37,831 bases of DNA from a virus (taxonomy: Duplodnaviria > Caudoviricetes). Shown here piece by piece: positions 17,530 to 26,459 of the stretch. Both the position numbers and the translations under genes were made by a program. The stretch spans positions 1-37,831 of IMG/VR virus record IMGVR_UViG_3300023116_000119; one strand, 5' to 3'. Every line of letters begins with the position of its first letter. The stretch's first letter is position 1. The notes under the pieces were generated by a model. It did no database searches. It was not told the origin of the DNA and saw nothing but the letters and a program-made list of their open reading frames with translations.

Positions 17530-19545
17530 CTAGAATGGTAAGTCTAGCTCTTCGTCTACTGAGCGATGAATCTCTCCATCTCTGGTGTTTTCTAGATACT
17601 TCACTATATTGTCGTAGTGTCCCTCGAAATTAATTCTTCGGAAGACAACCTCTGACTCTGTATCTGAGTTGTAATCACCAATATAAGTATTGAAGAAGCT
17701 CGTATGATACCAGTCTGAACTTAGTCTATCGTTAAAGTAGAAGTAGGGCGTTCCTGTGTCGTAAAGCCTAACCTCTATTCTGTCTATCATAAGACTATGA
17801 GCAGTTAACTTCTTGGTATCTCTGTCTATGTACACCGAGCCATGATTGTGCTTATGACAAAACTCGAGATGTCTCTCAGGAGTATGTCTATTTTCAAGTC
17901 TATCAAGACTTCTCTCTCTGTAGTGTTCCACTACCCAGTCGGGTAAGTCCATAGAACTCATCAGAGAAGGCATATTCATGACTGGATTCCATCTTCTTCT
18001 CAGTATCTCTACAAGGCCTTTCATAGCCTCGTTCAGACAATAGTCTGCTGATTTATCAGAGATACTCATTAGTTGCTCGGCATATGGTTTGCACAGAGCA
18101 ATCATCTGTCTATACTCTTTGATATTTACTTTCTCTTTTAATTTCTTACAAGTATTCTCGAAAGTATCAAAGTCGTATTCTCCATCAATGAGAACATGCT
18201 TATCACGATAAACAACTTTCTCTAGACTGCTAAATATATTCTCGTCTCCTGTTAGGACTCCAGGTGTTGACAAGAATTCTCTACTTAGAGCACTTCCATG
18301 CTCCTCGTATAACTCGTTTGCAATCTCTTTTGCGTAGTCTATTAAAGTTGTCCAGAAGATAGCCCATGCTCTCATCTTTGTCTCGTTAAGAGTTCCATTG
18401 TGGTATCTTATCTCTATGCTACCTATCCCATCTTCTCGTAGTCCAGGGTGCATATTCAAGCCATAGTACCTCTTGTCGTTCCAACGACTATCGCTGTATC
18501 TATTCGTATCATACCAGTAGTCGATGAAGTCATCTCTATCTCTAACATTGTTCAACTCGTAAAACGCTTGAGACATTGGTTGACAATATCGATTGTTTCT
18601 TCTCGATGGTGGTAGCATACTATACAAGTGAGGCTCTATGGTTTTGACTATACCTGCTATTACGACTCTGTGATACCAGTCAAGGTCTCTGGCGTCGAAG
18701 TGCATGTGTTGTCCACAAGATACATCGACATAGCCATCTGCCTCTCTTTTGATAGTATCAGTTATGATAGCAATTTCTCTCCATAGATAATCTCCTCTGC
18801 GAGGTTTCATATCTACTTCAGAGCCGACAAAACCCTCTTGAGCACGATTTAGCGAGCCATCTTGTCCAGAAGTATCTCTGGAATGCTCGTAATGTACTCT
18901 GTATTCTCGATTTATCTTACTCATTAGAGTATTATTTATCATATGTCCGATTTCATAGCTATCGTCAAGAGAGTTATAGTGCTCTATCTCTATACCGACA
19001 TGTCTTTTGCTCGGTATTTTGTTATATGTATTAGGCACTATCCATCTGTGTTCGTCTTCTGTGCGATAAGCTATACCCTCTCCAGTATGGGGTATTTCTA
19101 CTCTATGAGCAAGATACTCTGGTATTGCAACATCAGGACTGCTTAACTCGTCGTTTACATACCACTCTGGATATGTATTAGGAGGATTACAACTATCGCA
19201 ATAATACTCTCCAGTATCATCACAATAGTTATAGTCTCCGTACTCGGTGTCTATCTCTGCGTCGCAGTCTTCACAATTACGAAACCTATCGTTGTAGGCG
19301 TCTTGAGAGAAGTATTCTCCGACATTTTCAGAGTAGCACGCATCATCGATATGTACAACATCTCCAGTCTCGTAGCACTCTACATAGTCGTCTGCACAGC
19401 TTTCGCAGATTTCCTGTCCCATGTCGTTTGTATAGCCATATTCTACATCATCTGTAGTTAGCTCATTATCACAATCTGAACAACATAGAGACACTAGATT
19501 CGTCTCTTCTGCTGGCTCTTTATATCCTTCAGGAGGCATAGTCAA
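17530..19545 (-). CDS. Putative amidoligase (COOH-NH2 ligase, glutamine synthetase/gamma-glutamylcysteine ligase fold) with N-terminal CxxC repeats
   Basis: HVGIEIE, RDTS...GSEV, CGQHMHFD, RRNNRYC, RYYGLN, SIEIRYHNGT motifs; adjacent to a GATase. Confidence 0.85.
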   Translation of the reverse strand: MTMPPEGYKEPAEETNLVSLCCSDCDNELTTDDVEYGYTNDMGQEICESCADDYVECYETGDVVHIDDACYSENVGEYFSQDAYNDRFRNCEDCDAEIDTEYGDYNYCDDTGEYYCDSCNPPNTYPEWYVNDELSSPDVAIPEYLAHRVEIPHTGEGIAYRTEDEHRWIVPNTYNKIPSKRHVGIEIEHYNSLDDSYEIGHMINNTLMSKINREYRVHYEHSRDTSGQDGSLNRAQEGFVGSEVDMKPRRGDYLWREIAIITDTIKREADGYVDVSCGQHMHFDARDLDWYHRVVIAGIVKTIEPHLYSMLPPSRRNNRYCQPMSQAFYELNNVRDRDDFIDYWYDTNRYSDSRWNDKRYYGLNMHPGLREDGIGSIEIRYHNGTLNETKMRAWAIFWTTLIDYAKEIANELYEEHGSALSREFLSTPGVLTGDENIFSSLEKVVYRDKHVLIDGEYDFDTFENTCKKLKEKVNIKEYRQMIALCKPYAEQLMSISDKSADYCLNEAMKGLVEILRRRWNPVMNMPSLMSSMDLPDWVVEHYRERSLDRLENRHTPERHLEFCHKHNHGSVYIDRDTKKLTAHSLMIDRIEVRLYDTGTPYFYFNDRLSSDWYHTSFFNTYIGDYNSDTESEVVFRRINFEGHYDNIVKYLENTRDGEIHRSVDEELDLPF

Positions 19546-20680
19546 ACTCCATTTCTTCTTGCAGAGTATCTTTGCTAGCTATGTAGCCACCCTGCTCGAA
19601 ATATTCATAATCGTATAACCTCTCGACCAGACACCATCTATTTGGAGTTAGGTTGCTCTCTGCATACCATTGTCCATTACGAGGGTCGAGGAAATACCAC
19701 TCTTCCTCATCTGCATTGTATTCCCAGTATTCACTCGAATCTCTTTCTTCTACTGGGTATAGATTCTCTAGAGTATCCAAGCCATAGTCCATCATCTCCA
19801 TAACTTCTGATACAGAGACATAACCATCGTCGGGTACATCTTGATTTAAGAATCCAAACTCTATATCAATGTCTATGAAGTCGGAATAATCTGTGTCGTC
19901 TTTATAGTCGTTGATATCGTAGTAGTTCGAGTATACTTGATACTCTCTGCTTTTGTATTCGAAGTCTGTCTTGTCTACATTAGTTGCTAGACCATCAAAC
20001 TTGCGAGTGTCAAAAGCATACAGAGTATTTGTATTAATCTGGTAATGCGTACACTCTACACCAGCAGAGGCAAACGCTTTCTCTAAGAAGCCTGCTTCAG
20101 AAGCATAGTATAGTACTCGTGCTTTCTCCCAGTAGGCTAAATAGCAAGGACGATTTTTTTCTCTCGCTAGGTATAGTGTATGAGTATTATTCTTAACAAA
20201 AGAGATTGCAAAGTCTCCATCTAAATGACTCGCAACGGCGTTCATATCAGTCTCTCTGTCGACTAATTCGAACAGATACTGAGTGTCTACTGAGCACGCT
20301 TTACCGACTTCTTTTTCAAGTTCGGTGGTGTTGTATAGACAGCCATTGTGGGCTCCGATAGTATTCCCGATATGAAATGGGTGAGCATTCTCTAGCGAGA
20401 TTTCGCCCATTGTAGCAAATCGAGTATGTCCTATATAAATACTAATGTCGTTCATTCTACGCAGAGCATTACTGAACTGAGTAGTCTTTACGAACTCGGA
20501 AGATGGAGACAACGACTTATGTACGAGGCTATTACCCTTGCCAATCTCTGCAAGACCTGAAGAATGCCTACCTCTTGACTCGCTACTGATAGCGAGAGAT
20601 GTCAAGATAGTCTTGGCTTTCTTTAGTTGCGTCTTACTGAGTGGACGAGGGCTCTTAGCCATTCCATATATTCCACACAT
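19529..20680 (-). CDS. Class II glutamine amidotransferase (Ntn hydrolase) with acidic C-terminal extension
   Basis: N-terminal MCGIYG, RGRHSSG, GHTRFAT, NAHPF, HNG. Confidence 0.92.
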   Translation of the reverse strand: MCGIYGMAKSPRPLSKTQLKKAKTILTSLAISSESRGRHSSGLAEIGKGNSLVHKSLSPSSEFVKTTQFSNALRRMNDISIYIGHTRFATMGEISLENAHPFHIGNTIGAHNGCLYNTTELEKEVGKACSVDTQYLFELVDRETDMNAVASHLDGDFAISFVKNNTHTLYLAREKNRPCYLAYWEKARVLYYASEAGFLEKAFASAGVECTHYQINTNTLYAFDTRKFDGLATNVDKTDFEYKSREYQVYSNYYDINDYKDDTDYSDFIDIDIEFGFLNQDVPDDGYVSVSEVMEMMDYGLDTLENLYPVEERDSSEYWEYNADEEEWYFLDPRNGQWYAESNLTPNRWCLVERLYDYEYFEQGGYIASKDTLQEEMEFDYAS

Positions 20681-20777
20681 AAGGCATCATTCTCCTATAT
20701 TAGTTAAAGTAATAGACGCCCAGAGAAAAGAGTGGGTATCTCTAGGCGTTTCGTCGTATAACGACTCGTCAGTATTA

Positions 20778-21020
20778 CTATTGTATCTCGTCCATAATAG
20801 ACTTAAATACATTGTAGTCTGTCTGCAGATTATATGTCGTATAATCAATTCCTGTCTTCGCTTTCGTTTTGAGAGTCTTCTGTATAGTAGCCTCTCTCAT
20901 GAGAGCGTACTGCTCTGTCTTGATACTTTGCATAAGTTGTAGTACCTTGTTGTACTTCTCTTCTATGCGTCGCATTTGCAGTAGAAGTTCTCTTCTCTCT
21001 GCTGTTTGTTTGTCTGGCAT
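20778..21020 (-). CDS. Hypothetical coiled-coil protein
   Basis: 80 aa; strong AAAGGAGG RBS. Confidence 0.7.
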   Translation of the reverse strand: MPDKQTAERRELLLQMRRIEEKYNKVLQLMQSIKTEQYALMREATIQKTLKTKAKTGIDYTTYNLQTDYNVFKSIMDEIQ

Positions 21021-21864: not shown

Positions 21865-22032
21865 ATTATCTTGCCTGGCGAGGCGAAGCGAGGCGATTAA
21901 ATTTGCGTAAGCAAATCGCCGAGCGAATATCTTGCCAAGCGAAAATCTTAGACAATTATCTAGCCTGAGTTGGTGGGGTTTAAAAAAAAACGAGCCAATT
22001 ATCGTGCCATACACTCTAATATCTAGCCAAGC
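21865..22032. repeat. Array of five TATC(T/G)(T/A)GCC direct repeats (iteron-like)
   Basis: Copies at 21867, 21928, 21957, 22000, 22020. Confidence 0.75.
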
Positions 22033-22134
22033 CTGATGGGTTTGAGTTGTACTGTTGGAGCTGATTTTTGGTCTCGAAAATATTTTAAAATAATTCTTGT
22101 AATTCTCGTTTTTTAGCCCCAATTTCTCTTATAT

Positions 22135-22153
22135 GCGAAGCGATAAAGACAAC
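22135..22153. repeat. Left arm of a 19-bp imperfect inverted repeat (partner 22544-22562)
   Basis: gcgaagcgataaagacaac versus reverse complement gcgaagcgacaaagtcaac, 17/19 identical. Confidence 0.85.
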
Positions 22154-22201
22154 AAGACAAATAAGGAAACCGAAGTTCTCGGGAAAGGAGGTAAAGCGAC
22201 T

Positions 22202-22540
22202 ATGGCAAAAAGAACAACAATTGAAACTTCTGAAGAGTTCAACGAGTTGTATTCTCAATTAGTTCCGGCGATTAATACCGATGCCGAGTTTCATTCTAGA
22301 TTCAGATTGAAAGGCTCGGCCGGTGGAACTAAAAGCGAGGTTATGTCTGCATATTCTAAAGAGTGGAAAAAATTAGAATCTCAAGTAGATTCTCTTAATG
22401 CTCTACTTATTAGCGATGATGTGCGAGACACTGCCGGCGATTCTGTTTTAGTTCGTGTTATGGTATCCAAATATGATAATGCGACAAGTTCAGAACAAAT
22501 GGCATATAACCGAGTGTTAGAGAATCACTCGAAGAAATAA
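22202..22540 (+). CDS. Orphan 112-aa protein (MAKRTTIETSEEF...)
   Basis: Ideal RBS AAAGGAGGT before ATG 22202; double stop TAATAG. Confidence 0.8.
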   Translation: MAKRTTIETSEEFNELYSQLVPAINTDAEFHSRFRLKGSAGGTKSEVMSAYSKEWKKLESQVDSLNALLISDDVRDTAGDSVLVRVMVSKYDNATSSEQMAYNRVLENHSKK

Positions 22541-22553
22541 TAGGTTGACTTTG

Positions 22554-22729
22554 TCGCTTCGCTTACTTAGTTCTCGTGGGGCTCAGAACTCGGGGGTTTG
22601 TCTCTGCGTTTCCCTTGACTCGGCAAAGTTTTGCGGTAGCAAATACTTTGAAGTGTCAATGGGTTTAAACGCTTGTAGAGAGGAACTCGTGAGTTCTGAG
22701 TCCCTAAGAGAACAGAGTAAGCGAAGCGA
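22554..22729 (+). ncRNA. Candidate structured RNA/ssDNA element: ~175-nt rod-like hairpin
   Basis: Nested stems from tcgcttcgcttact/agtaagcgaagcga inward to tttgc-ggta-gcaaa; G-U pairs favour the plus strand. Confidence 0.65.
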
Positions 22730-22788
22730 AGTGCAACGGAGCGGAGCGATTACCAAATTTTCAACCTAATTTGTAATTTTCAATTTGG

Positions 22789-22808
22789 AAAAAGACCGGC
22801 ACGGTCTT
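22789..22808 (-). terminator. Probable intrinsic terminator (minus strand)
   Basis: Stem aagaccg-tgc-cggtctt running into a T tract on the minus strand. Confidence 0.55.
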
Positions 22809-22978
22809 GTGAAAACAAAAGAGACACACAAAATTGTGCAATTTTTGAGTTTTTGAACCTTTTTATGGTTTTTCCCTTAGAGTTCATAGAGTTTCTCTAG
22901 AGATGCTGTAGAAAAATTTTTTTTAGAAAAATTTACAAAGGGAAAGCTTATAGCTCTCTTAGTTTCCGTCCTTCGGAC
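22789..22978 (-). ncRNA. Candidate ~190-nt small RNA
   Basis: Lies between a minus-strand promoter and a terminator, no convincing ORF, several stems. Confidence 0.4.
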
Positions 22979-22983
22979 TCCAA

Positions 22984-23013
22984 AAAATACAAAGTTGTCT
23001 TTATGTGCGTCAA
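22984..23013 (-). promoter_or_regulatory. Promoter TTGACG-N18-TATTTT pointing into non-coding DNA
   Basis: -35 at 23013-23008, -10 at 22989-22984. Confidence 0.55.
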
Positions 23014-23071
23014 GACTCTTTTTGTTTATTTTGTAAAAAATTTTTTTTCTGGGGTATTTGTAATAAAAGTG

Positions 23072-25889: not shown

Positions 25890-26061
25890 AAAAACTAGAT
25901 GTATAATCTGCGATAGTAGAATTAGACTTACTGGTGTTTTAATGATGGATATAGCAAAGAATGATGTCAAAGGAATTAAGTGCATTGAGTGCATATCTGA
26001 ATATGATACTAACTTTAATATAAAGGAAATTGGTGTATGTCCACACAAAGGAATAGCATAA
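25828..26061 (+). CDS. Small zinc-finger protein
   Basis: CIIC...CIEC; start uncertain. Confidence 0.55.
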   Translation: MQFKNRNTKRYQKAAKLLRSRKTRCIICDSRIRLTGVLMMDIAKNDVKGIKCIECISEYDTNFNIKEIGVCPHKGIA

Positions 26062-26459
26062 TGAGATTAGCTGCATACGGAACATTAAGAAGAGGCGGCA
26101 TAGATATTGGTGTCATAGAAGGATTTAGTTTAGTATTTCCTGGAACACAATCTTTTCCAGCTATGATAAAGAATGAAAATGGAAAAGGAGTAGTTGTAGA
26201 ATTATTAGATGTTGATAAGGAAGACCTAAATGCTATGGATAGATATGAAAACGTAGAAGGCGGTCTTTATGTAAGAACAACTGCAAATGTGGAACTTTTA
26301 GATGGAACTAAAGAAAAAGCTTGGGTATATGTAGCTGGTCCTGTTTTATGGGAAAAGTCTAAAATATTTACAGAAGTTCCTGATGGAGATTGGTTTTCAG
26401 AAAAAACTGCAAAACTGCTAGGCAGAGTATATGAGCAAAAATTCAAAGAAGTCATTTAA
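26061..26459 (+). CDS. Gamma-glutamylcyclotransferase (AIG2-like/GGCT family)
   Basis: AAYGTLRRG, MDRYE...LYVR, AWVYV, GDW motifs; TAATG-coupled start 26061. Confidence 0.9.
   Translation: MRLAAYGTLRRGGIDIGVIEGFSLVFPGTQSFPAMIKNENGKGVVVELLDVDKEDLNAMDRYENVEGGLYVRTTANVELLDGTKEKAWVYVAGPVLWEKSKIFTEVPDGDWFSEKTAKLLGRVYEQKFKEVI

Follow-up and report, generated by a model that had tools for sequence, protein, structure and literature searches.

The window, a 37.8-kb virus record that is 79% complete, belongs to a marine tailed phage and contains genes for portal, terminase, capsid, DnaB, amidoligase and glutamine amidotransferase. Gene X (22202-22540, plus strand) lies at the junction from which the early arm runs leftward and the late arm rightward. 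The nearest annotated phage terminases are less than 29% identical to that of the window (among the matches listed, 25 of 271 records), and a host search for this phage gave no match in the genome collection. Genes for an amidoligase, a class II glutamine amidotransferase and a gamma-glutamyl cyclotransferase are located at 17530-20680 and 26037-26459, a set that also occurs in phiEco32-like phages. A 49.8-kb relative, G001 (loci L062-L064), contains a 98-aa gene twice (at about 6289 and 49602) as well as two very long tail-fibre-like ORFs of 1650 and 1671 aa; this record may span more than one genome length or include a variant segment. A tRNA search of G001 and the window found none.

Several elements surround gene X. 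Four short direct repeats (WTATCTWGCC-like; 21865-22032, plus strand) precede its promoter and are possible protein-binding sites, with at least two copies kept in all five aligned loci. In several clades, short repeats with a TCTAGC or TCTTGC core are grouped around the lone rightward gene (upstream in L093, L074, L130 and L138), and in sister phages they appear as GC-rich hairpins on both sides of that gene. A near-invariant hairpin with a GTA or GTAA tip is found at about 21890-21920; together, the repeats and hairpin of 21865-22032 are possibly operators or a replication origin. Downstream, and outside the switch described below, a conserved terminus-like element (22758-22833, no strand assigned) is shared with sister phages and represents a candidate packaging or genome-end signal. 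Its pattern occurred in 23 of the 29 loci examined, and at window 22758-23060, 265-270 of 280 nt are identical between lineages with very divergent genes X. Phased A/T tracts and then a constant cUUCGg-type hairpin come after the element in the same stretch, and a hairpin at 22792-22808 with a T-run was read by eye as a minus-strand terminator. Farther to the left, between a small ORF (20778-21020) and the glutamine amidotransferase gene, the minus strand carries a hammerhead ribozyme (20710-20803) with a canonical core and three predicted stems; it falls below the Rfam gathering score (29.9 bits) and is also present at L045 173-257 and in L071, kept with different stems in two lineages. The hammerhead core pattern was found at this site in 3 of 43 loci, all of the subclade that has the rod described below, and five other matches, located elsewhere, look like chance.

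Relatives were collected by scanning viral and metagenome contigs for protein and pattern matches, and 11 loci were analysed. This set omits L055, the window's own record; L046 is identical to the window. Five of 12 metagenome matches were due to chance, and 21 of 26 short-pattern matches were unrelated. The 11 loci comprise five main variants from three lineages, whose proteins share 73%, 39% and about 28-30% identity with X, and recombination between the lineages is visible, the rod tip being identical in L048 and L049. Via the neighbouring exonuclease gene, loci of the wider family were obtained (the best 80 of 92); 58 of them had sufficient upstream DNA and were screened.

Gene X encodes 112 aa from an internal start at 22202. 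Its Shine-Dalgarno (SD) sequence AAGGAGGT (22185-22192, plus strand) is located 9 nt before the ATG, in agreement with the initial annotation, which had judged the ribosome-binding site ideal. The gene start had been placed at 22202, which is to be corrected in that the reading frame already opens at an in-frame ATG at 22133, within the left arm, and would from there yield 135 aa. In all 11 loci this upstream ATG shares the frame of X, with no stop codon in between, and lies 21 or 23 codons ahead of the SD-led start. By shuffling, a stop-free leader had a chance of 0.18-0.37 per variant, and the leaders fall into few independent length classes (63 and 69 nt at the DNA level). The upstream ATG, or a site further upstream, is the called start in 23 of 26 database homologues, a count to be read with the preference of gene callers for long starts, and homologue P0002 has Thr in place of the internal Met.

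The promoter (22097-22125, plus strand), predicted to be of the sigma70 type, has a -35 element TTGTAA, a 17-nt spacer, a -10 element CAATTT and an A/T-rich upstream tract. It was read from the sequence, aligns in five loci and scored below the threshold of the consensus scan, so that it is unlisted there; its layout recurs in all variants as TTG, 17 nt and xAxxxT, 5-7 nt before the ATG that opens arm A. Transcription is predicted to start on or beside the A of ATG 22133. A lone rightward gene of a sister clade occupies the same junction behind the same promoter layout, with an ATG 5-6 nt after the -10 element and no SD in 18 of 18 cases (for five of the 18 the pattern search picked an ATG at 0 nt, with a further in-frame ATG behind it at 6 nt). 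Because these genes are SD-less behind the same layout, this phage group likely makes use of leaderless starts; leaderless translation requires a 5' AUG (PMC4611024). The SD-less sister genes (L072, L074, L093, L114 and 14 more; alignment A7) form a separate unnamed family of 120-150 aa, the ATG of each gene being at the predicted start of transcription. Compared with X they gave an hhalign probability of 9% (E 0.004), and compared with the close family no match, and are at best remote relatives of X. A GCGAAGC mini-hairpin or N4-type promoter was considered and rejected, the motif being absent from L011 and L017.

Just before the SD, a small leader hairpin (22170-22182, plus strand; 4 bp, loop AGUUC) is a candidate translational operator. 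It is predicted in the closed state of four of five variants, L048 placing these bases in a longer stem, and its loop letters are present in all five. The same bases on the minus strand (22182-22170) resemble a terminator, whose stem needs plus-strand G-U pairs in two variants. Gene X is found on RNA-library contigs in seven of seven runs; many other genes are also covered, DNA may be present, and the contigs, which come without raw reads, carry no level, strand or transcript end. Among the matches listed, the contig pieces stop by 22651 within the rod, which proves nothing.

The protein is not the orphan of the initial annotation and belongs to an unnamed phage family with database homologues. 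An iterated profile search of 491 sister-locus ORFs yielded 22 family members, and their profile retrieved 40 database proteins. X had no match in Pfam or PHROG and no usable match in the Atlas; 20 family members searched against protein families gave scattered weak matches, with at most three members per family. Members point in either direction and lie within about 200-1600 nt of the terminus-like element (23 of 29 loci examined). The leftward homologues (L108, L111, L113, L117, L119, L120, L137 and L144) share a leader of ~130 nt that starts with a conserved TTGACAATT motif and has a variable hairpin, possibly a second RNA motif.

As had been stated, X is soluble and unlike type I toxins: its length is 112-116 aa and its top 19-residue hydropathy 0.45-1.01 in five of five variants. 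Structure and fold searches returned nothing at E <= 0.001 in PDB or BFVD for X (best Z 2.9), and the best Z for a sister protein was 5.8 over a 39-residue helical hairpin; these searches show neither a new nor a known fold. Modelling supports a homodimer of X, with a prediction score of 0.55 against 0.02 for the best control, contacts agreeing to at least 75% between runs and pLDDT of at least 66; the score mark was reached by 20 of 30 solved homodimers and one of 23 single chains. The predicted interface is formed by strand 82-90 and helix 50-72. A ribbon-helix-helix fold was suggested by a weak profile match to permuted Arc (E 0.0056), with no passing stretch, and the predicted dimer does not form via the N-terminal strand. 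The conserved basic residues, the predicted intermolecular beta-ribbon and the genomic position hint weakly that X is a dimeric nucleic-acid-binding regulator acting near the genome end.

Gene X is bracketed by three arms on the plus strand. Arm A (22133-22153) comprises the predicted first transcript bases and opens with the in-frame ATG, a candidate leaderless start that would add 23 codons. Arm B (22544-22568) is complementary to A over 22544-22562 and to C over 22554-22568, and arm C (22715-22729), a near-direct repeat of A, pairs with B and closes a rod-shaped RNA. The 19-bp inverted repeat of the initial annotation (22135-22153 / 22544-22562) was recovered with 17 Watson-Crick pairs, one G-U pair and one mismatch on the plus strand, as was its perfect 14-bp pairing (22554-22567 / 22716-22729; 14/14 Watson-Crick). 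The two helices exclude each other, as proposed, because both use the same bases of B, 15 of them in the window and 13-19 across five of five variants. In the window the A:B duplex reaches -28.6 kcal/mol; the 49 other genes of 50 tested gave a mean of -11.3 (sd 3.2) and a best value of -18.7. The three-arm complementarity is far beyond chance. Two further partners of B were examined and set aside: a pairing with the SD and start region (17 pairs, 2 G-U, 5 mismatches) is found in the window and is not evident in other variants, and a third partner at about 22737-22749 is present in the window and the L048 lineage only.

The rod (22554-22729, plus strand), defined by folding and consensus, measures about 190 nt with its base. 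The region 22540-22760 folds at -116 kcal/mol, compared with -63.8 +/- 4.4 for shuffled sequences (z -11.8; 0/200 shuffles as good). Two cores are constant in seven of seven sequences, one at 22591-22596 / 22686-22691 with two G-U pairs and a G-G mismatch, the other at 22611-22619 / 22655-22668 with a 3' bulge; the apical loop GGYA (22635-22638) is constant as well. Uninterrupted helix runs at the rod base extend over 13-15 bp in all five variants, long enough for RNase III. An Rfam search gave no match for the locus, and for the C4 model none in the window at E <= 1 or in four loci at E <= 10. A model of the rod found no match outside the subclade in 84 sources, and most relatives of protein X lack the rod, which bears on the protein-plus-cognate-RNA module that the initial annotation had offered as a candidate alternative. 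6S RNA was rejected, since the rod consensus has no large central bubble and there was no Rfam match. No retron reverse transcriptase was found among the 54 ORFs of the window (record 79% complete) scanned against PHROGs. The element is described nowhere that was found in the full-text literature; supplements of large phage RNA-motif screens may hold it.

B is complementary to both A and C in five of five variants despite different letters. Cognate A:B duplexes range from -25.9 to -28.6 kcal/mol in all five, while 16 cross-lineage pairs reach -7.8 to -17.2 and the within-lineage cross pairs (n=4) -17.1 to -29.0 kcal/mol. The comparison of L045 with L047 separates the arms from the rest of the rod: A is identical at 13 of 18 positions (5 differ) and B at 16 of 22 (6 differ), the same rate as at third codon positions (83 of 114), and both pairings are kept. 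The inner rod is identical at 140 of 142 positions, compared with about 73% for A, B and synonymous sites. The constraint on the arms is thus on pairing only, because their letters diverge at the third-codon rate with pairing kept. Read by eye, one change is compensated in A:B only, and in the rod consensus of seven sequences 24 of 51 pairs are changed on both sides; with only three lineages, and these recombined, the covariation counts do not amount to a formal significance test. The initial annotation had named, as counter-evidence to its switch, homologous loci that keep the gene and lose the repeats without compensation; what was found is both helices kept with changed letters. It had also left open whether the structure acts as RNA or as single-stranded DNA. 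Plus-strand RNA is favoured over DNA by the plus-strand G-U pairs and by the folding bias of the strands: in five of five variants the plus strand has a 21-32 kcal/mol folding advantage over the minus strand as RNA, the gap for DNA being 8-14. Among the 29 loci examined, an A:B helix of -26 to -29 and a rod below -100 kcal/mol occurred jointly in the five subclade loci only; in the other 24 sister loci A:B reached at most -25 and the rod at most -81 kcal/mol, the two strongest values involving bases upstream of the promoter. The three-arm RNA switch and its uncatalogued rod are real, conserved and confined to one subclade, and the trigger and output proposed below are candidates.

That the switch depends on transcript length, as the initial annotation had suggested, agrees with folding at several 3' ends, which predicts A:B without C and mostly B:C in full-length RNA. 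For transcripts from A that end 35, 100 or 165 nt past the stop codon, the probability of A:B was 0.72-1.00 in five of five variants; at 200 nt past the stop it was 0.00-0.52, and at 235 nt 0.00-0.03 with B:C at 0.70-0.94 (five variants each). Forcing A:B in the full-length RNA costs 0.0-9.3 kcal/mol of about 200-245. A second energy estimate gave -6 to +9, and disagrees for L048, where at +200 it favours A:B by 6 kcal/mol and the pairing probability from folding is 0.16. The SD region is unpaired with a probability of 0.56-0.83 in the closed state and 0.44-0.76 at full length, with a clear shift in the window variant only (0.72 versus 0.44). Since the SD is predicted to stay about equally open in both states, the hok-like control put forward for the 112-aa start is not supported, the polarity moreover being opposite to that of hok. 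In the closed state the 5' AUG is unpaired with a probability of 0.00-0.19 in three variants. It is barely buried by A:B in the window (0.58 closed versus 0.66 full-length) and in L048 is unpaired at 0.40-0.52 closed versus 0.53 full-length; in both of these the A:B helix begins at or just after the G of the AUG.

The reading we put forward, tentatively and as possible rather than probable, is that the gene X mRNA acts as a 3'-end-dependent timer, in which 3' trimming would close the 5' end and shut the likely leaderless start while the SD start stays usable. A:B is predicted to form first during transcription and then to be displaced as the rod zips up; displacement would be expected because C alone contributes 7-11 pairs adjoining the rod. 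The full-length RNA would then hold B in the rod, with its 5' end free, and since the two states are nearly equal in energy, A is predicted to be able to re-invade. 3' exonucleases may take off the exposed C strand and thereby lock A:B, leaving a closed loop with a shortened rod as its 3' stem. Closed RNA would combine a paired 5' end resisting RppH-type attack with a blocked leaderless start and an open SD; BsRppH needs two or more unpaired 5' nucleotides (PMC3997798). The closed form could accordingly persist as a long-lived mRNA yielding the 112-aa form only, and fresh RNA would yield both the 135-aa and the 112-aa form.

A timer leaves the invariant rod cores unexplained, because a 3' protective stem needs neither 190 nt nor internal motifs. 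Their constancy in seven of seven sequences is accounted for if A:B is instead a processing stem, as around bacterial rRNA, at which an RNase III-type cut frees the rod as a non-coding RNA that possibly binds X or a host factor via these motifs. The length of A:B (13-22 bp) suits such a role, given that E. coli RNase III can make a single-strand cut in a stem of only 12 bp (PMC8708148), and so does the near-identity of the inner rod beside arms that diverge like synonymous sites, although that identity may stem from recombination. The competition by C for the same bases is left unexplained, no Rfam family matches, and most relatives of X are without a rod. We regard this explanation as somewhat unlikely on its own; timer and processing stem may also be combined.

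The variant-specific pairing of A with B recalls self-recognition of the P4 type, in which B, freed from the rod, would act in trans on A of nascent transcripts of the same variant, in immunity or copy control. The logic is that of the P4 CI RNA, whose partners are seqA on the upstream side and seqC on the downstream side (PMC4825925). B, however, is buried in a helix of 13-15 bp and not displayed in loops, and no diversifying selection is needed for the arms, because A and B change at the synonymous rate. With neither a C4 match in Rfam nor an integrase among the 54 window ORFs scanned (record 79% complete), a function of this kind is improbable. The same grade applies to an attenuator or insulator, in which the choice between A:B and B:C would set polymerase read-through into the terminus-like element and the late genes. 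That element begins 30 nt past C and lies 210-218 nt past the stop codon in five of five subclade loci, and the need of A:B for a ribosome-free 5' end could couple translation to read-through; yet the rod is not followed by a U-tract, the lineages have no terminator downstream of C in common, and no downstream hairpin shared by all of them is created or disrupted in either state.

The position of the rod next to the conserved terminus-like element, its ability to fold as DNA too (-55 to -65 kcal/mol) and the varying orientation of gene X in sister phages would suit arms that act in DNA, as a single-stranded hairpin or cruciform near the genome end serving replication, terminal-repeat duplication or inversion. 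Against this, A lies exactly at the predicted transcription start, changes pass through plus-strand G-U pairs, sister phages have the same terminus element without the rod, and the orientation is the same in 11 of 11 loci, which makes a role in DNA quite improbable. A toxin-antitoxin or addiction module of the hok type but with a soluble toxin, which the 5'-3' fold-back and 3'-end dependence known from hok (PMC9841398) bring to mind, is highly improbable, as the SD is sequestered in neither state, X has no hydrophobic segment, the X family occurs without the RNA structure, and no minus-strand promoter is listed for 22030-22980, in a scan that also missed the gene's own promoter.

Among known systems, hok and P4 CI invite comparison (PMC9841398; PMC4825925). 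In the hok mRNA of plasmid R1, which has tac and fbi elements, slow 3' maturation brings about the switch; it resembles the gene X mRNA in that the two ends pair, one arm has alternative partners and the outcome is set by the 3' end. In contrast to hok, the shortened gene X RNA is the closed form, of opposite polarity, and the arm for which two partners compete is located 3' of the gene; the SD of X is not hidden, the protein is a soluble 112-aa predicted dimer, a 190-nt rod is the competitor, and no antisense RNA was found for gene X. The P4 CI RNA (seqA, seqC; Rfam C4) has, like B, a middle sequence complementary to an upstream and a downstream one, whereas in our case a whole gene lies between A and B, B forms part of a continuous helix, and there is neither a terminator nor an Rfam match. 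The gene X switch belongs to neither the hok nor the P4 CI class.

The nearest phage precedent is probably the early T7 gene 1.1/1.2 mRNA, in which the arm of a 3' hairpin at an RNase III site reportedly folds back on the 5' region depending on the cut, so that, as with gene X, a downstream-hairpin arm can pair with the 5' region in a processing-dependent manner. The T7 arm is said to hide the ribosome-binding site, while that of X spans the initial bases of the transcript, an in-frame AUG among them, and does not block the SD; the X rod is several times longer and has invariant cores. In B. subtilis hbs and S. aureus icaR, too, distal mRNA ends pair with each other over the coding sequence, with functional effects (PMC12697547).

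Extended to all the features of the locus, the timer reading would make the 190-nt rod a decoy for the 3' arm: strand exchange across the gene would gate a 5'-terminal leaderless AUG, two protein forms would give way to one as the RNA ages, and the invariant cores would bind the encoded dimer or a host factor. Such a protein-RNA timer beside a genome end, for which there is no described counterpart, is an unlikely proposal in this full form.

Natural long-range switches within bacterial or phage mRNAs are few (PMC12697547), and those considered here act on the ribosome-binding site, whereas the switch of gene X targets the 5' end and a likely leaderless start. Its support is the complete turnover of letters in three arms at once, and its polarity is the reverse of that of hok. 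The five natural variants, with their weak cross-lineage pairing, form a ready set for arm swaps. If it works as predicted, the switch would show how the lifetime of an mRNA, or the form of its protein, can be timed from the 3' end, would add an uncatalogued 190-nt RNA with invariant motifs, and would point to an unnamed protein family kept beside a genome-end signal across a large group of marine phages.
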